From the UHGV virus genome UHGV-0081595: a DNA stretch of 23,321 bases, one strand, 5' to 3'. Positions 1 to 23,321 of the stretch are shown here, piece after piece. Source of the stretch: a virus. Below the pieces are notes generated by a model that saw only the letters and a program-made list of their open reading frames with translations, had not been told where the DNA came from and made no database searches. Position 1 is the stretch's first letter. Every line of letters starts with the position of its first letter. The translations under genes were made by a program, and so were the position numbers.

Positions 1-444
1 TCATCTGGCCTGAACTGCCGGAGGCGTAGGCCATTCAATATCTGGAGCACTGGAAGTATCGACCAGTTCCAGTGCGTCCAGATAATCCAACCACAAATTA
101 TATTGCGCCAGTTCCTCACCTTTCAGACGACCAATAGCGGCTTTACCGGGCCATTGCTTACTGTTCATGTGTTCGTTGGCCTGATTAAGCAATAATTGTC
201 TTTCTGATTCTGCCTGTTGAATAAGTTCTTCATGTGATGGTTGAGGTATTTCAGCCCATGTGGGAAAACCATTTACCCCTGCAACCCGGATTTTCCCTTG
301 TGGCGGTTTCGCCATATATTTTACAGAAATGTTATCAGGAATATCTAATGCATCAGCGGGCCATGTTCCATTTACTTCATAAGTATTTTTTAAATTAACA
401 GCATAAAATGCATTTTCCGAAGGGGAATAAATATATTGATTCAT
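1..444 (-). CDS. G: tail fibre assembly protein (gpG-like chaperone)
   Basis: 147-aa ORF immediately downstream of the tail fibre gene; stop codon at the window edge (positions 1-3); AT-rich N-terminal half as expected for a fibre-tip-specific chaperone. Confidence 0.75.
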   Translation of the reverse strand: MNQYIYSPSENAFYAVNLKNTYEVNGTWPADALDIPDNISVKYMAKPPQGKIRVAGVNGFPTWAEIPQPSHEELIQQAESERQLLLNQANEHMNSKQWPGKAAIGRLKGEELAQYNLWLDYLDALELVDTSSAPDIEWPTPPAVQAR

Positions 445-2445: not shown

Positions 2446-3346
2446 CCGTTCCTCCGTTGGTCACGCTCCACTGCGTACATGATGCCGCCTGCGTTTTGTT
2501 CAGGACCACATCCGCCAGAGGGGAAGCCAGCTCCACACGCTGCACACCCTCAACATGCAGGGCGGCAAAGATGGCGCTACGGCGAATATCCCGACCAAGA
2601 CGCGTCTGACTGGCGATGTACTTCTGCAGGCTGGCTTTTGCCGCTGCCATTACCGGCTCTGCTTCCGGTCCCGGATAAAGAAAAATGGTGGCTTCCACTC
2701 GGTACGGGATGATTTCTGCGCTGCGAACCGTCAGACGGTCAGCCACCGGGCGGACGTTCTCACTGTTCAGGGCGTTCTCCACCACATCCAGCAAGTCTTT
2801 TTCTGCAGTTCCGTCGCCTTCGCGGCTAAGGACAGTCAGCACCACCTCTGCAGGTGCCGGGCTGGTTGCACTGGCATCCGCCACCCGACCGTCGGCGCTT
2901 CGGGCATGAAATTCATAAGCGGCAGTTGGCCCCGCAACCGAAAGCCCTTCAAAGGCTGCAGGCACACGCAGGCGTAACGCTTCATCGCTTTCCATCACAG
3001 CCGCAACGGGCGGCACAGCGTCATTATCAGCAGGCGTCACCGTCAGGCGTTTCACGTTGTAGTTGGCAGCGAGCTGGTCAAGATCGCCGCCCATCGCGTA
3101 AGCCACCATCACCGCCTGCGCGGCTTCGTTAATGCGCTGGCGCAGAAGCAACTCACGGTAAGCGTTCTCCTGCAACAATTTGGTGACTGGTTCAGATTCC
3201 AGTTCCAGCGTGCGGATCACTGCTTCCTGCTCATCTTTCGGATGAAGCGCAACAAATTCGGCCTTGCGTTCGGCAAGCAACGTCTCAAAGTCCGGCACAT
3301 CGACAATCTGCGGCGCAGGCAACTGCGAAAGGTCAATCACTGCCAT
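2438..3346 (-). CDS. J: baseplate assembly protein gpJ
   Basis: Baseplate-J-like sequence beginning MAVIDLSQLPAPQIVDVPDFETLLAERKAEF; start placed at the internal ATG (3346) preceded by a GGAG SD, not the track's upstream start at 3385. Confidence 0.85.
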   Translation of the reverse strand: MAVIDLSQLPAPQIVDVPDFETLLAERKAEFVALHPKDEQEAVIRTLELESEPVTKLLQENAYRELLLRQRINEAAQAVMVAYAMGGDLDQLAANYNVKRLTVTPADNDAVPPVAAVMESDEALRLRVPAAFEGLSVAGPTAAYEFHARSADGRVADASATSPAPAEVVLTVLSREGDGTAEKDLLDVVENALNSENVRPVADRLTVRSAEIIPYRVEATIFLYPGPEAEPVMAAAKASLQKYIASQTRLGRDIRRSAIFAALHVEGVQRVELASPLADVVLNKTQAASCTQWSVTNGGTDE

Positions 3347-13089: not shown

Positions 13090-13173
13090 TAAAAATTCAG
13101 ATATTATAAACAAATCAATTAATAACCATATAAATAGAAAAGTCAATTGAGCGTAGCTCAACATATCGCCAGC

Positions 13174-13193
13174 AAGGCGGGCATACCCGCCTT
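13174..13193. terminator. GC-rich hairpin between convergent Q and the cargo operon; putative intrinsic terminator
   Basis: AAGGCGGG-CATA-CCCGCCTT (8-bp stem, 4-nt loop) followed by TATTAA on the plus strand; lies between the Q stop (13089) and the stop of the 234-aa cargo gene (13196). Confidence 0.45.
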
Positions 13194-13195
13194 TA

Positions 13196-13900
13196 TTAAC
13201 GAAATTCATCATTAGATAATTGCTGAATGAGGAAGTCGGAGTAAAAATCCAGATGATTAGAATCTGAATTAATAAAAGCGCTTTTTGAAAGCTCAACAAA
13301 AGAAGGTTCCCCGTAAATCAAACAATGCAACCTAACTTTATCTATATTATATTTTTTGTTAGTAAAAATACTTTCTAGCTCTAACAATGCATTTTTTGTG
13401 GAAGTTATCTCAACCGAGGCCTTGGAGTTCCCATTTAACACAACATTGCTAACTTTAATTTTATCAATATGTAATAGACTTATTGAATGCTGTAAACTTA
13501 GATAATTTATATACTCCTTTAAATTTAAGGTGATTGAACCAAATCCAACCCTATAATTGAAATCTACACTAAGTCTATCCGTCAATTTCTTTATAGATTT
13601 AGGGGGATTAAAAATAGCCAATAAAGAGAGATTTTTAGATACGGGCTTTAATGCAAATTTTATGGTTTCATACTCTAAAAAATCTTGTTCTATCTCATCT
13701 CCCGCGGGCGATACAATAACTTCTGTACGCAATGACTTTTCAACATAAGAAGCGGAAACTTCATGTTCAGTAAAATTCACAAAAGTATAACCATAACCTT
13801 TACTTTCATCATAAGAATTACGTTTAAAATAATCAATTAGTTCAGAGAAGGTTATTGATAACTTCACTCTGCTCCACTTAATTTTATCCAGTGTTTTCAT
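13196..13900 (-). CDS. hypothetical protein, third gene of the AT-rich cargo operon
   Basis: 234-aa ORF, 8 bp downstream of the preceding gene; AT-rich, Asn/Lys/Ile-biased; no motif or family I can recognise. Confidence 0.7.
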   Translation of the reverse strand: MKTLDKIKWSRVKLSITFSELIDYFKRNSYDESKGYGYTFVNFTEHEVSASYVEKSLRTEVIVSPAGDEIEQDFLEYETIKFALKPVSKNLSLLAIFNPPKSIKKLTDRLSVDFNYRVGFGSITLNLKEYINYLSLQHSISLLHIDKIKVSNVVLNGNSKASVEITSTKNALLELESIFTNKKYNIDKVRLHCLIYGEPSFVELSKSAFINSDSNHLDFYSDFLIQQLSNDEFR

Positions 13901-13908
13901 TTGTTATC

Positions 13909-14985
13909 TCACTCATACTCTTTATTAATATCCATTATAATTGAACGCGCCGTTTTTTCAATAAGTCTTTTAAAATGATATTCTTCATCATCCGGTAATT
14001 GGCTCGGATTTTTATTATATTCTCCGGCACCTTTATATTTCCTCACCCCTCTAGAAATATATGAAAAGCTCTTAAACTCTAAAGGATCACTAAACTGAGC
14101 TTCAAAATCATAAAGATCTGGAGTAGTAGATTTATCCTTTATTCTCCATCTTATTTTCCAAATATAAAACCCTCTATTATACAAAGAATTCAACTCTTCA
14201 GATTTAAGCACCCCCTCTCCTTTCAAAGATGCTTTGCTAATATGTATTCCTGTTTCAGAATCCCCATCTTCCTCCTCCATGACAGCAGGTTTAGGATGGT
14301 AGATATAAACATCCGTAACATCATCTAAAACATATCCATCCAACCCATTGATGAGCCGCTTAAAAAATTCTGTTCTTTTATCTGCGTCATCGATGTTCGC
14401 GAGGTTGATTTCTTCTGTATCTAAAGTCGTTGCTTCTATATCTTTTTCCTTTTGTATAACCTGTTCGATAATACTTAGTAGTTTTTTATTATAAATCTCA
14501 GCTTGTTCACTATCAGGCCTACGAATTGAAAAACCATCCGAAAGGGACTCGATTTCAAAAACAGCAGTTTTCTTCTCTACTTGGTTAAATTCACTTTTAC
14601 CAAAATTGGTTGATAAGTATGTAATGCTAATTTTAATAAAATCTTTATCACTGATTACATGACATATATCATCTTCGCTTTCCAGCTGATCTTTAAGCTT
14701 ATTAGCAGCCTTAACAAGTAGTGGCTTATCAATATTATTCTTAATAACTATAGCCGTAGATTTCTCTCGCCTTAAAAAACCTCCAAATATTCCAGAAATT
14801 TTCTGGTGCAAATAATAATCATGAGTGAGCTTTGAGAAATTTTTTGCTAGTTGCTTACGCTCAGTTTTTTTTGACACCAAAATTCCACGGGATAAAAACA
14901 ATTCCACCATATCATTATCAGTGACACGTGATTGGCATAAAGCCTCGTATAAAGCTTTGTCTGTAACACTGTGTATTTCACTCAT
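13909..14985 (-). CDS. hypothetical protein, second gene of the AT-rich cargo operon
   Basis: 358-aa ORF whose ATG overlaps the stop of the upstream gene (TAATG); acidic, Lys/Glu-rich; no recognisable catalytic motif, Walker box or TM segment. Confidence 0.7.
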   Translation of the reverse strand: MSEIHSVTDKALYEALCQSRVTDNDMVELFLSRGILVSKKTERKQLAKNFSKLTHDYYLHQKISGIFGGFLRREKSTAIVIKNNIDKPLLVKAANKLKDQLESEDDICHVISDKDFIKISITYLSTNFGKSEFNQVEKKTAVFEIESLSDGFSIRRPDSEQAEIYNKKLLSIIEQVIQKEKDIEATTLDTEEINLANIDDADKRTEFFKRLINGLDGYVLDDVTDVYIYHPKPAVMEEEDGDSETGIHISKASLKGEGVLKSEELNSLYNRGFYIWKIRWRIKDKSTTPDLYDFEAQFSDPLEFKSFSYISRGVRKYKGAGEYNKNPSQLPDDEEYHFKRLIEKTARSIIMDINKEYE

Positions 14986-16049
14986 TATTTAACATCCCAT
15001 GATCTTTCTTCTGTTAAATATTGCTCTCGAGATAGAGGCACAATATATAGCTCAATAGATAATAATTTTTCCTTCATAGATTCATCATATCCCCACTGAT
15101 ATGAAAATTTTTCTATAGCTTTTATAAAATTAGTCCGTATGTGCTCACTTTTATCAATACATGCTACTCTAATTCTAATATTATTTTTTGAGTTTAATAT
15201 CTGGTAGTTAGCTAGAGTATCTAATAAATAATTAAACTCTAAGTCTGTTTTACCGGAGCGGTTGTAATAAACAATAAACCCTTCAGGATAAACCAGCTCG
15301 TCCTCCTTTTTAGCTCTATTATATTCTATTACTGGACCATGTTTAATTATCATGTAGGGGGATGTTAGAGTTTCCACTGTAGCTGGAAGATATTCTTCTG
15401 CAGTCACAACCTTATGAAGTATTAATTGAGGATAATAGAACCCATAATCATCACGCGGGAATTTATTTTCCGCAATCATTTCGTTCATATCAGCAACAAC
15501 AGACATAAGATAACTAATAGTTCGTGGCTCAATTATATGTATTTGCTGATTTTCAGATACATTTACTCTGTCTAAATTAACTGCCGCAGGTCTTTTCCCT
15601 TTTTTGGGTTTAGGAGGATAAAAATAGTCATAGAAATTATGCTTATAGTCATTATCATGATTATATACAAAAAGTAACCCTCGTACTTCACTTTTAGACA
15701 TGGTTGTCTCATAGCGACTTTTCCATACCTGACTATTCTGCGCACAATGAATAGTTTTTGCTAAGGAATCTAAAGCATTTTCAACCATTTTAGAATTTAA
15801 AGACCCTTTTGAATAACTTTTCAAATCAGTATTTAGATAAACAATTTTATTTAAGTAAGGATCTTTATAATGAAAGACAATATCAACTGGATGTGTGTGG
15901 TCTTGCGTTTTTTCCGCTGGCTTGTGTAATTCTTGTTCAGTACACGGAAAATCATGATCGGTCGGACCGTGTTGCTTCCACTTAAATCTTTCCAATAGTT
16001 TATGGGACACCAGCTTCGCCAAGTCTTCACGAGGTCCGTTTTCTGCCAT
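14985..16049 (-). CDS. hypothetical protein, first gene of the AT-rich cargo operon; weak PD-(D/E)xK-like motif near the N-terminus
   Basis: 354-aa ORF with AGGAG SD ~9 nt upstream of the ATG; residues ~50-80 read HPVD-IVFHYKDPYLNKIVYLNT-DLK, compatible with a PD...(D/E)xK nuclease core; otherwise unassignable. Confidence 0.7.
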   Translation of the reverse strand: MAENGPREDLAKLVSHKLLERFKWKQHGPTDHDFPCTEQELHKPAEKTQDHTHPVDIVFHYKDPYLNKIVYLNTDLKSYSKGSLNSKMVENALDSLAKTIHCAQNSQVWKSRYETTMSKSEVRGLLFVYNHDNDYKHNFYDYFYPPKPKKGKRPAAVNLDRVNVSENQQIHIIEPRTISYLMSVVADMNEMIAENKFPRDDYGFYYPQLILHKVVTAEEYLPATVETLTSPYMIIKHGPVIEYNRAKKEDELVYPEGFIVYYNRSGKTDLEFNYLLDTLANYQILNSKNNIRIRVACIDKSEHIRTNFIKAIEKFSYQWGYDESMKEKLLSIELYIVPLSREQYLTEERSWDVK

Positions 16050-16128
16050 GATAAGATTCTCCTTTAGTTAACTAAGAATAATACTATTGAAAAATTCACA
16101 GATTCTCTAGCTTTTTAGTTAGCGCGCG

Positions 16129-16147
16129 CTCGTATCCCCGCCACGCC
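16129..16147 (-). other. putative cos site (cohesive-end sequence of the P2/186 type)
   Basis: Minus strand reads GGCGTGGCGGGGATACGAG followed by CGCGCGCT; as I recall, the P2 and 186 cohesive ends begin GGCGAGGCGGGGAAAGCAC / GGCGTGGCGGGGAAAGCAT and P2 continues TGCGCGCT. Not verified against a database. Confidence 0.55.
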
Positions 16148-16158
16148 TGCCCGCTTTA

Positions 16159-16263
16159 TGCAGTGGTTTTCATGCACCTGCATGACATGAGTAAAAGCCC
16201 GCCAGTTCTAGCAGGTCTCTGCAAAAACGATCCTCAATCGATCATGCGATTTCATGCAGCATA
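16159..16263. repeat. cluster of TCATGC(A) repeats adjacent to cos (possible terminase-binding or packaging-accessory repeats)
   Basis: TCATGCAC, TGCATGAC, TCATGCGA, TCATGCAG, TCATGCAC within ~105 bp next to the cos-like sequence, in a non-coding stretch. Confidence 0.4.
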
Positions 16264-16456
16264 GTCATGCACAGCCAAGGGAAGCGTAAATCCGTATCTG
16301 AATGACCGCTGAAAAGCGAATCATACGGGTTTACAAAGATGAAAGTCCGCTGTGAACGAGAAACGGACTATGATACTAACAAGAGAGCATCACTGTTAAT
16401 ATTTGAACAATTAATGCTCAGCTATTTATCTATTTTACAATCAGAAAGGACTTGTA

Positions 16457-16867
16457 ATGGTTACGGTTGATGAATTAAAGATGAAATATCCGGACGCGAA
16501 TGCCTGGCAAGTGGGCGACAGCCCTGAACTGGCTAACGAGCTTGCAGCACTTATCAAAAAAGGGATTAAAACGGCCTCCTGCGGCTCTTATGCCTCTTAC
16601 CAGAAGGAAGAGTTTGCCCCAAGGATTGGGAGCTATAACATCATCCTTAACGGCCAGGATGTACCTGTATGCGTGACCCGGCTGGTGTCGATGCGACTGG
16701 TGCGTTTTTGTGATGTTACTGCCGAGTTCGCTCGCAAGGAAGGTGAAGGCGATTTGAGTCTTGAATATTGGCAGAGAGAGCATCAACGATTTTTTACATG
16801 TGAAGGTTACTTTTCTGACGATATGGAGCTGATTATGGAAGAGTTTGAAGTTGTTGATGTTTTGTAA
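16457..16867 (+). CDS. ASCH-domain protein
   Basis: 136 aa; pattern WQVGDSPELANELAALIKKGIKTASCGSY...YNIILNGQDVPVCVTRLVSMRLVRFCDVTAEFARKEGEGDLSLEYWQREHQRFF matches the ASCH family signature (GxKTAT... / EGEGD-SL-YW); AAAGGA SD 6 nt upstream; only plus-strand gene between cos and A. Confidence 0.8.
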   Translation: MVTVDELKMKYPDANAWQVGDSPELANELAALIKKGIKTASCGSYASYQKEEFAPRIGSYNIILNGQDVPVCVTRLVSMRLVRFCDVTAEFARKEGEGDLSLEYWQREHQRFFTCEGYFSDDMELIMEEFEVVDVL

Positions 16868-17019
16868 TCCAACAACGTTTATGCATGTCAGATTAGAATA
16901 ACTGAGTACCGTTTTATCACGTGAAATTTGTATTAATGCCCGCCTCTGGCACAAAGCGAACGAGCACTTATCAAAATGCTCACCCACCTTACGCCTCGTT
17001 TCACTCGTTGCCCAAACTA

Positions 17020-17049
17020 GCCCCCATCAGAATGAATCCTCCTGGGGGC
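17020..17049 (-). terminator. hairpin downstream of the DinI-like gene; possible terminator
   Basis: GCCCCCA / TGGGGGC 7-bp GC stem with a large (~16-nt) loop, immediately after the DinI-like stop; weak U-tract, so low confidence. Confidence 0.3.
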
Positions 17050-17057
17050 AACGTTTC

Positions 17058-17291
17058 TTAATGCAGCCAGCTGTCGTCTTCCCACACCTTCTGCATAATT
17101 TTCATCACTTGTTTTCTTTCTTCATCCAGTTGCAGTCCGGTCAGTTCCACACCGTTAGAGCTACCTTTGCGGATACGAATTACCGTTTTGGGATACAGGG
17201 GGCGCAGATTGCGGTAAAGCTCGGATTCAAGGGCGTCCAAGATAGACTGGCTAATCTTCTGCTCTTTATCGATCATTATTTCAATGCGCAT
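17058..17291 (-). CDS. dinI: DinI-family protein (SOS-induced RecA modulator-like)
   Basis: MRIEIMIDKEQKISQSILDALESELYRNLRPLYPKTVIRIRKGSSNGVELTGLQLDEERKQVMKIMQKVWEDDSWL resembles E. coli DinI along its length; start at the ATG preceded by GAGGTGA; the track ORF extends 24 codons further upstream in frame. Confidence 0.8.
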   Translation of the reverse strand: MRIEIMIDKEQKISQSILDALESELYRNLRPLYPKTVIRIRKGSSNGVELTGLQLDEERKQVMKIMQKVWEDDSWLH

Positions 17292-17301
17292 AAAAGTCAC
17301 C

Positions 17302-17490
17302 TCAACTGATGACATCCATTGAGCGGTTGTATTCGTGGGTTCTGATTTTTGCCATGAGTTCATCTGTCAGTTCAGAAACCCACTGCAAAGCCAGCCCCTT
17401 CTCTTCATCACTACACTCACTAGCCGCTACAAGCTTAAGAAAAAAATCAATGCGCTGGAGCTTCAAAGACTCCAAAAAATAGTCCTGCAT
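17302..17490 (-). CDS. small hypothetical protein (62 aa) co-transcribed with the DinI-like gene; possible Tum-like SOS antirepressor component
   Basis: Internal ATG at 17490 preceded by a perfect AGGAGG SD; the longer track ORF (to 17592) would run through the LexA box and promoter; stop 11 nt before the DinI-like start. Confidence 0.55.
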   Translation of the reverse strand: MQDYFLESLKLQRIDFFLKLVAASECSDEEKGLALQWVSELTDELMAKIRTHEYNRSMDVIS

Positions 17491-17531
17491 TTTTCCTCCT
17501 ATGACACCACAAGCAATACTGTATACATAAC

Positions 17532-17551
17532 CACTGTTTATATTTACAGTA
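17532..17551. promoter_or_regulatory. LexA (SOS) box overlapping the promoter of the small-ORF/DinI-like operon
   Basis: CACTGTTTATATTTACAGTA: CTGT-N8-ACAG with an AT-rich spacer, close to the consensus TACTGTATATATATACAGTA; a perfect half-site TACTGTAT sits just upstream (17517-17524); TTTACA and TATA-type hexamers overlap on the minus strand. Confidence 0.65.
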
Positions 17552-17643
17552 TATAATAATCTTACTGATGTAAAACGTTTTTTTACGTTCATCAGCCTGA
17601 TATGCCTGGTATTATTAAGAGCACGAATTGTTAATCCGCGTAA

Positions 17644-20058
17644 TTAATACAGGTTCCGCCACTTATCATCTTCCCGCAAACGCTGGTTCCGATAGAAGAT
17701 ACGCAAGCCTGCTCCTGACGGAATACTGCCGCCGCGAAGGAGTAAATCGACCTCTTTCTCGCTACCATCAAATCCTCTGGACTTCAGTTCATAGACGAGC
17801 TGCTGACGCTGATACTCTGTAATTCGCTGTTTGTAGTCTTTACGTCGTTTCGGTTTAACCAGGCGTAATCTTGCTGCCAGTTCCCGGCGCTCTTTTTTGC
17901 TCATACTGTGCAGGTAATCGTGCAACTCCTTGTCATCCATGCGGGTGATATCCGTTCTGGTATCCCCATCAGCTGATTTGTCTTTCCCTTGTTGGTACAA
18001 ATTTTCAACAAGGGGACAGTTATTGCCACGAGTCCAAGGGGCGCAAGCGCCCTGGTCGGCTGCCGCCTCCTGAACGTCAACGGCTTTACGAACCATTTTC
18101 CACTTCACTGCATGAGTGCAGATCTTGCCCTCTGCAATGGGTGACCAGATGCCATAAATACGAATGCCGTGATCGCCATAGGCGGTCGGCTCTTCGTTGA
18201 TTTCATAAGCGGTTCTGATGAGGTGATATTTACGGGGAACCAGTACGCCGCCCTGCTTCATGATGTAGGTGGCAAAACAACCAGCATCAGCAGCAGCCAA
18301 GATGGCATCAAGGCGCGGGTTATCCAGTACCGGCGCACCTGCTTTTTTGTCCCCCTGTTGCCTTGCCGCCTGACCAGCCAGCAATCGCAGTTCACGGTAA
18401 GCCTGACGCCCCGGAATGCCAAAGAAGCGGAATTGCTGAACACGATGCAAAGACGCCCAGGCGTTCACGTATTCAGCGTTATCACGCAGAGATTTACCCG
18501 TTTCCTTGCTGATCTCGCCAGCCAGACCACGCCCGTCAATGTTCTTACTGATGTATTTCGCTATGTAGCTTGTCGGCGTTCCTTTGCGCGGGTTAATCAG
18601 CTCAGACTTAAAGCGCGGCCCCGTGTTATTGCCCAGCTCCTCGCGGTCTTCACGGATAGCAAACTTACGCAACAATGCAGTAATGGCGCGGCGGTCTTTT
18701 TTGCGCATGAAACACAACAGGTGCCAGTGAACTGTGCCGTCGTGATGCGGCTCAGCCACCCGCACGCCATACCAGCGCAACCCGGCTTTGTGCATCGCCT
18801 TACGAAATGCAGCAAACATACCGACCAGATAATCGCTGCTTTGTCTTACCGTCGCATTTGTCCAGGTCGGGTTGGGCCTGCCGTTATTTAGCGTGGAATG
18901 GAAACGTGACGGACAGGTGATGGTGTAGAAAACGGCGCAGTCACCGCGCATTTCCGCGATAAGCTCCAGACCTTTAACACAGGCCATCATCTCATTGCGG
19001 CGATGCGCAGGGTTGCTGCTGCTGGCGTTTACCACATCCTCCATGTCCAGCGTGTCGCCGTCTTCGTTCACCAGTTCATGAGAACGGAAAAACTCCAGCG
19101 ACTTACGGCGCTGCTCACGTTTATGCAACACGGCTTCATAGCTGACATAGGGAGATGCTTTTTTGCTGACAAGGCAGACAGCACGCAACTGCTCTTCCCG
19201 CCATTCGCAACGCATTTTCCATAATTTCCGGTACCACCAGTCGGCGCACAACATACGCGCCAGCGAACCCGGAATGAGTTCATAGGGCACGGGTTTACGG
19301 CGGTTTCTTTTCCGACGGAGTTGCTCAAACGCAGGCGGGATTACATCCAGACGCAGGGTTTCCGCTGCCACCCTTTCCCATGTATTGCGGATTTCTTCTG
19401 GCTTAACGTCATCGGTGGCATACAAATCGCCACAAGCGGCATCAAGGCACATACTCATATGCGCAGCTACCAGGGTGGACAGGCGTTTCACCTGATCCTG
19501 ACTCATTTCAGGCAGGATCAGCAGGCCGTCCAGCCCTTCATGGCTTGCCATAAAGCGAAAAGATGCAGATAGCTGACTGTCGCGTACATGCTCCAGTCGT
19601 TCCAGACATGGCTTAATCGTCTCACGTAAATAGCGGGAATAAGCCTTTGGCCTGCCAAGGCTGCTGAAGTATTCAATACGTTGCATCAGCGGCTTGCTGA
19701 TATGGGAAGGCTGGGCGTTGACGTCCGCCAGAATGACCATATCCGGATTAAAACGCTGCTGCTCATGCGCCAGCTTTGCCCGACTAATGAGCTTATCCTG
19801 TTCCATTTCGCGCTGGACAGGATCACGGGATTCATTAAAGAAATAACGCTCCCAGACCTGATCACTCAGCGCCTCACGGCGCAGCTGTTCCTGCTCGTTA
19901 TCGGCAGCGTACAGAGTGATCAGGTTTGAAAGCGTAGAAACCGGCGCAACTTCCACCGGGTCCAGATAAGGGTTAATGGCCTTTTTCGGGCTGTTCCATG
20001 AGAACGATGCGGCAGCTTCGTTAAAGCCGCAGCAGTTGTTCATATCGGCATGACTCAT
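17644..20058 (-). CDS. A: replication initiation endonuclease gpA (rolling-circle, HUH-type)
   Basis: 804 aa; [19 protein letters not shown] (HUH motif) and [12 protein letters not shown] (active-site Tyr motif) match P2 gpA; start overlaps the Dam stop (ATGA). Confidence 0.92.
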
Positions 20059-20912
20059 GCACGTACTCCGTACACGGCAGAACTATCCACGCCACGCGAA
20101 TAATCAAATCCCACCCAGCAGCGCGGCCCGGAAACAGCAATGATTTCTGTTGCTGATTTACCCTCGCCAGCTGCCACACCGATGCTGCGTTTTGCCTTGA
20201 TGTAGTGGTGAGTAAAATTGCGATACAGCGAACGGATCAGGGATGTGTCACTGTTAGAAACAATGACCGGATGTCCTTCTGATGACCGATGTTCAAGAAC
20301 AGATGCCAGGTGATACTGGTCATCTTCAGTGAAGCCGTCAGTGTGATAGCCGGAAAACGTACCGTCATACGGCGGATCGCAATACACCACATCCCCCACC
20401 TTCAACATCGCCAGCGTTTCATCAAAGCTGGCGCAGATAAACGTTGCCCGCTGGGCTTTCTCTGCAAATGCGCGAATTTCTTTTTCAGGGAAATACGGAT
20501 TTTTATAATTACCGTAGGGAATGTTGAAATGTCCGCTCTTGTTATAGCGACATAAACCACGGTAACCGTGACGATTGAGATACAGGAAATATACCGCTTT
20601 CATGAAATCAGTAATTTCAGTGGAGTAATTAAACTCCTGCCTTATGTTGTAATAAGCTACCTCCCTGTTTGCTTCCTCAAATAAAGCTCTGGCACGAGAT
20701 ATAAACGCCTCACAATCAGCAGCAACCTTTTTATAGAGGTTGATTAAATCAGGATTAATATCCGCAACAAGATAGCTGGGGTAATCCGTCTCCATCATCA
20801 CTGCACAGGAACCCGCGAAAGGTTCAACCAGTCGCGGGCCAGCAGGAAGATGCTTTTTCAGTTCGGACATTATGGCGGTTTTATTTCCTGCCCATTTCAG
20901 GATGGTGCTCAT
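20055..20912 (-). CDS. dam: Dam-family DNA N6-adenine methyltransferase (GATC-type orphan MTase)
   Basis: [29 protein letters not shown] and VVYCDPPY motifs align with E. coli Dam; start at the internal ATG ([11 protein letters not shown]) preceded by a GGAGGTG SD rather than the track start at 20972. Confidence 0.88.
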
Positions 20913-21136
20913 ACAGCACCTCCGTTGTAATGTTTGCCTTTCAGCTCTGCGATTTCCTGGCAGGTAATGCAAAGCTGCACTCCCGGAATGGCGCGGCGTC
21001 GTGCTGGCGGAATTGGCGCTTCACATTCAATACAAAGCACGCGAGACACGCCCGGTGTTTTGGCACGGGCAGCACGAATATGGCGCTGGCGTTCTTCTTC
21101 AACGCGCTGCTGTACGAGATCCATTGCATCAGCCAT
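20909..21136 (-). CDS. TraR/DksA-family C4 zinc-finger protein
   Basis: 75 aa with CIEC-x17-CITC four-cysteine finger and basic flanks; typical small early-region protein of P2-like phages. Confidence 0.75.
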   Translation of the reverse strand: MADAMDLVQQRVEEERQRHIRAARAKTPGVSRVLCIECEAPIPPARRRAIPGVQLCITCQEIAELKGKHYNGGAV

Positions 21137-23095: not shown

Positions 23096-23122
23096 CGAAT
23101 TTTGGATTTCTTTGGAGGACTT

Positions 23123-23321
23123 GTGGATTTCAATAGCGGCGGTAAGAAAGCCATAGAACGTTTAGTTGAAGCATATGGGTTCGGTACCCGTCAGGCTCTC
23201 TGTGATCATTTAGGTGTTTCTAAGAGCACCATGGCAACGCGCTATATGCGTGATATTTTTCCAGCAGATTGGGTAATCCAGTGCGCCCTTGAAACGGGCA
23301 CCTCGCTTAATTGGCTAACAA
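23123..23321 (+). CDS. cI: CI repressor, phage-186 type (5' part; truncated by the window edge)
   Basis: From a GTG preceded by GGAGGA, translation reads VDFNSGGKKAIERLVEAYGFGTRQALCDHLGVSKSTMATRYMRDIFPADWVIQCALETGTSLNWLT, matching the 186 CI-type N-terminal HTH domain; exact start uncertain. Confidence 0.7.
   Translation, partial: MDFNSGGKKAIERLVEAYGFGTRQALCDHLGVSKSTMATRYMRDIFPADWVIQCALETGTSLNWLT

Follow-up and report, generated by a model that had tools for sequence, protein, structure and literature searches.

Phage 186 encodes Tum, a protein of 146 aa, in its p95 SOS operon, behind a LexA-repressed promoter that lies 3′ of gene A. The antirepressor action of Tum is recorded in the annotation of the 186 genome record and is attributed to Shearwin 1998 as cited in PMC3121763. 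The second half of 186 Tum has been described as DinI-like, and in Fels-2 and PSP3 tum occurs in two halves, with the antirepressor activity of PSP3 located in the upstream gene (Lemire et al. 2011; PMC3121763). The single 186 protein is equivalent to TumA plus TumB, and 186 additionally makes the DinI-like part alone from an internal GTG start. The PSP3 record likens tumA (60 aa) to the 5′ end and tumB (77 aa) to the 3′ end of 186 tum, and refers to UV induction of the prophage. In Fels-2, the two genes are annotated as STM2728 (hypothetical) and STM2726.1 (“DinI family, similar to TumB of PsP3”).

Functional evidence is available for DuoHS, a P2-like prophage of E. coli HS, where either an in-frame deletion of “tum” or a lexA(Ind-) host abolishes mitomycin C-induced lysis and virion formation (PMC12055606). 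According to the supplement of that study, the gene deleted as “tum” is ECHS_RS04495 (PMC12055606), which the E. coli HS record shows as a 189-nt gene directly upstream of the DinI-like ECHS_RS04500. A related logic is found in the dinI-gfoA/gftA loci of Gifsy-1/2/3, which are likewise LexA-controlled operons of a small antirepressor and a DinI homologue, and in which the repressor is inactivated by binding, without cleavage (PMC3121763). Three features set these operons apart from the locus described below: dinI precedes the antirepressor gene, they reside in lambdoid phages, and neither their antirepressors nor their repressors are related by family to those found here (PMC3121763).

We analyzed a 23,321-nt stretch of viral DNA (UHGV virus genome UHGV-0081595; hereafter, the window), in which a LexA-controlled small ORF followed by a DinI-like gene had been predicted to form an SOS-induction (tum-like) module, possibly as a split gene. 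With a probability of about 0.9, the locus is the operon through which a P2-like prophage of the Fels-2/186 type is induced by the SOS response, in its two-gene tumA/tumB form. The module is already known, and its logic has been worked out for 186, Fels-2, PSP3, and DuoHS; the present analysis may add only two points, namely that the double operator is colicin-like and that TumA and CI do not co-vary on a fine scale.

Organization of the locus

The module is encoded on the minus strand and, as predicted, is located just downstream of A, beginning directly 3′ of the A gene stop codon. Homologues of this A gene are labeled “replication endonuclease / P2 gpA-like” at the equivalent site in Fels-2 and E. 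coli HS. The stop codon is followed by a hairpin, an AT-rich control region, an AGGAGG sequence, a 62-aa ORF, a 10-nt gap with GAGGTG, and a 77-aa ORF (Table 1). Both ORFs and their individual Shine-Dalgarno sequences are thus present as described in the original prediction; the spacing between the ORFs, however, is 10 nt and not 11 nt. The reading frame of the DinI-like ORF was also correctly recognized as open upstream of its start codon, overlapping the 3′ end of the small ORF in another frame, but it extends over 25 codons instead of 24, the latter being the distance to an in-frame ATG.

Table 1 Features of the SOS-induction module and its surroundings (window coordinates)
Feature	Coordinates	Strand	Basis or remark
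A-type replication endonuclease gene, 804 aa	17644..20058	minus	ORF; ends at 17644
Hairpin between A stop codon and tum promoter	17564..17596	minus	RNA fold, -12.0 kcal/mol
Putative -35 hexamer TTTACA of the SOS promoter	17569..17574	minus	Equivalent of 186 p95
Putative -10 hexamer TACTGT	17546..17551	minus	Coincides with left end of LexA box 1
LexA box 1, TACTGTAAATATAAACAGTG, strong	17532..17551	minus	Consensus match and weight matrix
LexA box 2, CAGTGGTTATGTATACAGTA, weaker	17517..17536	minus	Weight matrix, 15.7 bits
Shine-Dalgarno AGGAGG of the small ORF	17495..17500	minus	Sequence inspection
tumA-like gene, 62 aa, putative antirepressor, PHROG 698	17302..17490	minus	ATG 17490, TGA 17302-17304
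Shine-Dalgarno GAGGTG of tumB	17298..17303	minus	Sequence inspection; overlaps tumA stop codon
tumB-like gene, 77 aa, DinI family	17058..17291	minus	ATG 17291, TAA 17058-17060

The position of the tumB Shine-Dalgarno sequence over the tumA stop codon makes translational coupling of the two genes possible. The hairpin behind the A gene overlaps the -35 hexamer, is also found in Fels-2 and E. coli HS, and may serve as a terminator of the early transcript. A second, weak hairpin predicted by folding at 17296-17313 takes in the tumB Shine-Dalgarno sequence; since it is not visibly conserved in relatives, it was dropped as a regulatory element.

The module is nearly identical to those of Fels-2 and DuoHS

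At the DNA level, the module is 97.8% identical to Fels-2 over ~600 bp and 96.7% identical to the E. coli HS prophage DuoHS, whose TumA and TumB match those of the window in 61/62 and 76/77 residues, respectively. All three share the double LexA operator, the 10-nt gap, the 77-aa DinI-like gene, the place after A, and the 62-aa gene, whose product in both phages matches that of the window at 61/62 residues; each protein differs by one amino-acid change. Fels-2 deviates from the window in two further respects. Its module is followed downstream by STM2726, a homologue of 186 orf97, where the window carries other cargo, and the N-terminal 66 residues of its CI are only 67% identical to those of the window CI. 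In line with the first difference, tblastn searches of the window with 186 Orf97 and Fels-2 STM2726 gave no match.

Given this degree of identity to DuoHS, in the DNA as well as in the 62-aa gene required for induction (PMC12055606), the function proposed for the module is one that experiments have already established in a nearly identical copy, and its prediction as an SOS-induction module is well founded. The module is therefore an ordinary one, near-identical to a module shown experimentally to trigger prophage induction. The DuoHS deletion could in principle also lower the translation of tumB, so that this experiment alone does not separate the contribution of tumA from that of tumB.

Profile searches relate the small ORF to the antirepressor part of Tum

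The 62-aa ORF matches phrog_698 at 3.6e-38 and no Pfam or NCBIfam family. A BLASTP comparison with 186 Tum and PSP3 TumA revealed no similarity, so the relationship to Tum rests on profiles. When an alignment of 35 diverse members drawn from 86 relatives was used as an hhalign query, it matched residues 4-46 of 186 Tum with a probability of 95.2% (E 2.6e-8), while the result against PSP3 TumA alone was weak (P 0.004). Cross-matches were also found between PHROG families: the N-terminus of 186 Tum matches phrog_698 at 5.9e-6, and the window ORF matches phrog_8554 at 2.4e-8 and phrog_1993, the family of PSP3 TumA, at 2.2e-3. From these profile and PHROG matches, we classify the small ORF as a TumA-type protein, homologous to the half of Tum that acts as antirepressor, in keeping with the earlier description of the module as tum-like. 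The family assignments nevertheless differ: the antirepressor part of 186 Tum belongs to PHROG 1993 / 37919, and PSP3 TumA to the 186-type phrog_1993, instead of 698 as here.

The 86 relatives were obtained from 1.84 billion representatives and are nearly all small stand-alone proteins. Among the 86 representative matches, no protein carried, behind a TumA-like N-terminus, further sequence long enough for a DinI domain, and the best 120 close homologues of TumA contained no DinI domain. The protein is strongly conserved across Enterobacterales. Its AlphaFold model is a two-helix hairpin (helices 2-23 and 28-61; pLDDT 89.4), for which a Foldseek search against the PDB returned only generic helical hairpins with E > 1; a sequence-profile search of the PDB with TumA gave no match.

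A natural two-cistron arrangement

In 186, both parts of Tum are fused in one polypeptide. In the window, they are encoded by two cistrons in different frames, with a stop codon and a gap of 10 nt in between, which places the module in the tumA/tumB type. PSP3 shares this two-gene architecture and has a TumB closely similar to window-type TumB proteins, but its tumA and tumB are in one frame, with a stop codon and 3 nt between them.

The two-cistron form is widespread, being found in dozens of phages (>50 phage records) and in 21/40 species representatives. Its junction varies considerably: in six phages compared individually, the gap between tumA and tumB was 10, 10, 11, 11, 12, and 3 nt, the frame offset 1, 1, 2, 2, 0, and 0, and the open stretch upstream of tumB 25, 25, 14, 14, 4, and 1 codons. 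Across the survey of 40 representatives, the gap ranged from 8 to 13 nt, and offsets of 0, 1, and 2 occurred in 6, 6, and 9 loci. Because its length varies between 1 and 25 codons among relatives, we regard the upstream open stretch of tumB as incidental. Comparison of the window with SopEPhi yielded 18 synonymous vs 7 non-synonymous codon differences in one ORF and 19 vs 10 in the other; this excess of synonymous differences indicates purifying selection on both.

These data bear on two alternative readings of the junction. The fusion of both parts in one 186 protein of 146 aa, together with a 25-codon open stretch that precedes tumB in its frame and runs into the end of the small ORF, could suggest that a recent frameshift or an assembly error has disrupted one tum gene, leaving a pseudogene or an artifact. 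Such an event would not be expected to recur in >50 phage records and 21/40 species representatives with each ORF preceded by a Shine-Dalgarno sequence, nor to leave gaps of 3-13 nt in all three frame offsets, upstream open stretches of anything from 1 to 25 codons in six relatives, and a synonymous excess in both ORFs. The fused form is likewise missing from all 86 representative matches, and the near-identical DuoHS module works. The comparative data effectively refute this reading, whose probability we regard as negligible. The overlap of the tumB frame with the 3′ end of tumA would also fit a programmed ribosomal frameshift near the tumA stop codon, by which a fused TumA-TumB like 186 Tum is made beside the separate products, and 186 does obtain a fused and a stand-alone DinI-like product from one gene. 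The relative frame, however, changes even among close relatives, as the offsets above show, in-frame stop codons lie 1-14 codons 5′ of tumB in several of them, and the junction has no evident conserved slippery site; we therefore rejected this reading on comparative grounds as very improbable.

The two-ORF form is thus the natural tumA/tumB arrangement, described before for PSP3 and Fels-2, and not the result of a frameshift. Of the earlier notion of a split gene, the evolutionary sense holds, in which PSP3 and Fels-2 have been described as split, whereas the suspected frameshift or sequencing error at ~17291-17363 does not.

The operator resembles those of colicin genes

The near-consensus LexA box noted in the original prediction stands up well. 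Box 1 (CACTGTTTATATTTACAGTA) departs from the 20-nt consensus at 3 positions; among 100 dinucleotide-shuffled versions of the window, none had an equally good match. A rough weight matrix derived from 25 E. coli LexA sites gives box 1 a score of 23.7 bits, compared with a maximum of 18.7 bits in 200 whole-window shuffles. The element beside it had been taken for a half-site; it is indeed there, but it is a second 20-mer LexA box, whose score falls inside the range of the weight-matrix training sites. The two 20-mers are offset by 15 nt, and their 16-nt cores have one base in common.

A LexA box of >=14 bits precedes the homologous gene in 40/40 species representatives, and a box pair with the 15-nt offset is present in 21/40. 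Fels-2, SopEPhi, a Klebsiella Gegevirus, and a Yersinia phage carry the pair with the identical offset in diverged flanks. The phages 186, in which orf97 follows tum, and PSP3 as well as ESSI-2-type phages have a single LexA box, unlike the window.

A blastn search of plasmids with the 41-nt operator matched 331 records, including many small mobilizable plasmids; in the 2 plasmid records examined, the operator lies directly 5′ of the colicin Y gene and the cloacin gene. Identity to the colicin Y and cloacin operators is ~90% over 37-39 nt, and box 2 with its flank equals the colicin Y operator over 22 nt without differences. As geometry and sequence agree so closely with the elements 5′ of these genes, including the one-base overlap of the 16-nt cores, we assign the operator to the colicin-type double-box class. 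Colicin operators are bound by two LexA dimers, and their basal expression is undetectable (PMC2994835). By analogy, the two-box operator in the window would provide tighter repression and a later induction or a higher threshold. The systems differ in what is controlled, a toxin on the plasmids and a prophage antirepressor here. They also seem to differ in promoter geometry, with the -10 hexamer apparently inside box 1 in the window and both boxes probably just downstream of the -10 on Col plasmids.

A strict sigma-70 scan of the region found no promoter. TTTACA-N17-TACTGT in the window nonetheless parallels the annotated p95 promoter of 186, TTCACA-N18-TACTGT, whose -10 is recorded as TACTGT inside the LexA site. 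Both hexamers recur in Fels-2, SopEPhi, Klebsiella phi4.1, and Yersinia MLG42 despite differing spacer sequences; an alternative -10, TATACT at 17548-17553, would have a 15-nt spacer. By analogy with 186, we infer that this is the SOS promoter and the equivalent of p95. The predicted overlap of the LexA box with promoter-like hexamers accordingly finds support in the TACTGT within box 1 and in the p95 parallel, but not in the strict scan.

TumB is a facultative partner of TumA

The 77-aa ORF covers the entire Pfam DinI profile (PF06183; positions 1-63/63, E 1.3e-22, 80.4 bits vs a gathering cut-off of 24.2) and aligns end to end with E. coli DinI (PDB 1GHH, residues 1-75, E 3.6e-6). It is 41% identical to residues 71-145 of 186 Tum, which, in agreement with PMC3121763, bears out the earlier, tentative statement that Tum has a DinI-like portion. 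With 42 bits, TumB does not reach the cut-off of 111 for NCBIfam PRK10597, the equivalog of chromosomal DinI, and is consequently a phage DinI-like paralogue and not host DinI. Its family membership suggests that it may bind RecA filaments.

In the 40-locus survey, which was built from a close alignment and is biased towards near relatives, 19/40 species representatives with a LexA-boxed tumA had no detectable tumB, and ESSI-2-type phages show the same combination. With LexA-boxed tumA so often found without a detectable tumB, we consider tumA the constant element and tumB a facultative accessory.

This distribution also helps to weigh a different assignment of roles, in which the small ORF is not an antirepressor but has an unrelated role, and induction proceeds via the DinI-like protein or another LexA-controlled function. 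Several observations would be compatible with this: the small ORF belongs to no Pfam or NCBIfam family, has no pairwise similarity to 186 Tum, and goes by odd source names, some databases listing it as “levan regulatory protein”; its deletion in DuoHS might moreover be polar on tumB. Its profile homology to the N-terminal part of Tum argues against it, as do the 19/40 representatives and ESSI-2-type phages with a LexA-boxed tumA lacking a detectable tumB, the reported location of the PSP3 antirepressor activity in the upstream gene, and the finding that the Gifsy DinI homologues are dispensable for induction (PMC3121763). We therefore judge this assignment unlikely and retain TumA as the putative antirepressor.

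Proposed mechanism of induction

In the lysogen, LexA would occupy the two overlapping boxes, covering the -10 region and the transcript start, and keep the operon shut. Upon DNA damage, active RecA would stimulate the self-cleavage of LexA, and the operon would be transcribed. TumA would then inactivate CI as an antirepressor, without cleavage, in the manner of the N-terminal part of 186 Tum; as proposed by analogy to 186, it would do so by binding CI and blocking its attachment to the operator. Loss of active CI would release the lytic promoter and allow expression of Apl, CII, and the replication genes. TumB, as a co-transcribed and optional accessory, would probably act on RecA filaments and thereby tune the SOS signal.

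Identical TumA proteins accompany divergent CI repressors

TumA proteins 100% identical to that of the window are found in 813R9, 4LV2017, ST437-OXA245phi4.2, Cartapus, and Kp4846-2. The CI proteins of these phages share, in pairwise comparison, only 61-80% identity in the first 66 residues and 28-46% in the C-terminal part. In a set of eight CIs, which adds Fels-2 (TumA 98%) and carriers of an 84%-identical TumA, the values were 56-80% for the N-terminal and 23-54% for the C-terminal part, with the exception of one pair with identical N-terminal regions. On a coarse scale, TumA type and CI clade do correspond: phages with window-type TumA have CI N-terminal regions 67-79% identical to that of the window, and those with the 186 and PSP3 types have regions of 40-48% identity.

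The occurrence of identical TumA proteins with strongly differing CIs is not predicted by a simple one-to-one pairing of antirepressor and repressor. Because one and the same TumA accompanies such divergent CIs, TumA may recognize a conserved surface of the N-terminal helix-turn-helix DNA-binding domain of CI. A tentative extension, which we hold to be possible though rather doubtful as a whole, would see TumA as a pan-immunity antirepressor that forms, jointly with the double LexA operator, a portable high-threshold cassette. If this were true, TumA could act in trans to induce heteroimmune prophages of the Fels-2-like kind residing in the same cell, and the colicin-type double operator would permit the lethal switch only when DNA damage is severe or prolonged.

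Phage context and distribution

The window is a 186-type P2-like prophage. The CI/Apl/CII context named in the original prediction was recovered, with a CII that matches Pfam CP76 at 3.4e-42, an Apl-like ORF, and the N-terminus of a 186-family CI; 186 is likewise a phage of the CI/Apl/CII type. A Dam-like methylase gene is located upstream of A. As judged from its sequence, the module marks the prophage as presumably DNA-damage-inducible, unlike P2 itself, and such a prophage would therefore be inducible by SOS-inducing antibiotics. This predicted inducibility matters for the spread of the phage and of the defense cargo that adjoins the module. The interval between tumB and the portal gene contains an ASCH-domain gene and a three-gene operon matching the PADLOC models Hp1-Hp3. 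Part of the stretch 13090-17660 was matched in 1279/5426 complete E. coli genomes, and with matches in roughly a quarter of these genomes, the switch is a common one.

Divergent CI repressors beside conserved TumA

The CI genes of phages encoding a TumA of the window type (L053-L060) were compared with window positions 23106-23321, which hold the N-terminus of the immunity repressor CI, the presumed TumA target. Across phages with identical or near-identical TumA, the N-terminal 66 aa of the CIs were 56-80% identical and the rest of the protein 23-54%; the exception to the N-terminal divergence was one pair, in which these regions were identical. In the phage collection, nothing matched the window CI N-terminus at an identity of at least 80%. 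This divergence hints that TumA acts across immunity groups. Many distant TumA-family members (P0146, P0157, P0162, P0178, P0182, P0183, P0185, and P0192) carry a glycine-rich conserved tail with L/F-Q as the last residues (e.g., KNPQNGGESGRGALQ). The window TumA lacks this tail, which might mark the protein for degradation or mediate an interaction.

Operator and surroundings of the tum module

The operator at 17517-17553 has nearly the same sequence as the colicin Y and cloacin operators of Col plasmids (Table). This likeness might stem from common descent, i.e., a mobile operator cassette, or from convergence under LexA constraints. The two hairpins flanking the module may act in termination or form the ends of transcripts; no T run follows the compound one. 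Similarity to the related phage Fels-2 ends at position 17060. In Fels-2, the Dam-like methylase gene (STM2730) has the same placement relative to the A gene.

Features around the tum module and their Col plasmid counterparts
Feature	Position	Strand	Remarks
Colicin Y operator (L009)	2501-2537		Counterpart of window 17517-17553
Cloacin operator (L010)	61-99		Counterpart of window 17517-17553
Hairpin, A stop codon to tum promoter	17564-17596	(-)	-12 kcal/mol; overlaps -35 hexamer
Compound G+C-rich hairpin	17014-17056	(-)	-20.4 kcal/mol; directly 3' of tumB
D12-class Dam-like adenine methylase gene	20055-20972	(-)	Immediately upstream of and overlapping A gene
Variable cargo	13196-16049	(-)	Between tumB and portal gene
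Variable cargo	16457-16867	(+)	Between tumB and portal gene

The variable cargo comprises a three-gene operon (354, 358, and 234 aa) and, in the opposite orientation, an ASCH-domain gene, whereas 186 and Fels-2 carry an orf97-like gene at this place. A Pfam search of the three operon proteins gave no match; they match the PADLOC defence models Hp1, Hp2, and Hp3 (2.7e-62, 1e-39, and 3.1e-14, respectively). The operon probably corresponds to the P2-hotspot system named '3HP'.
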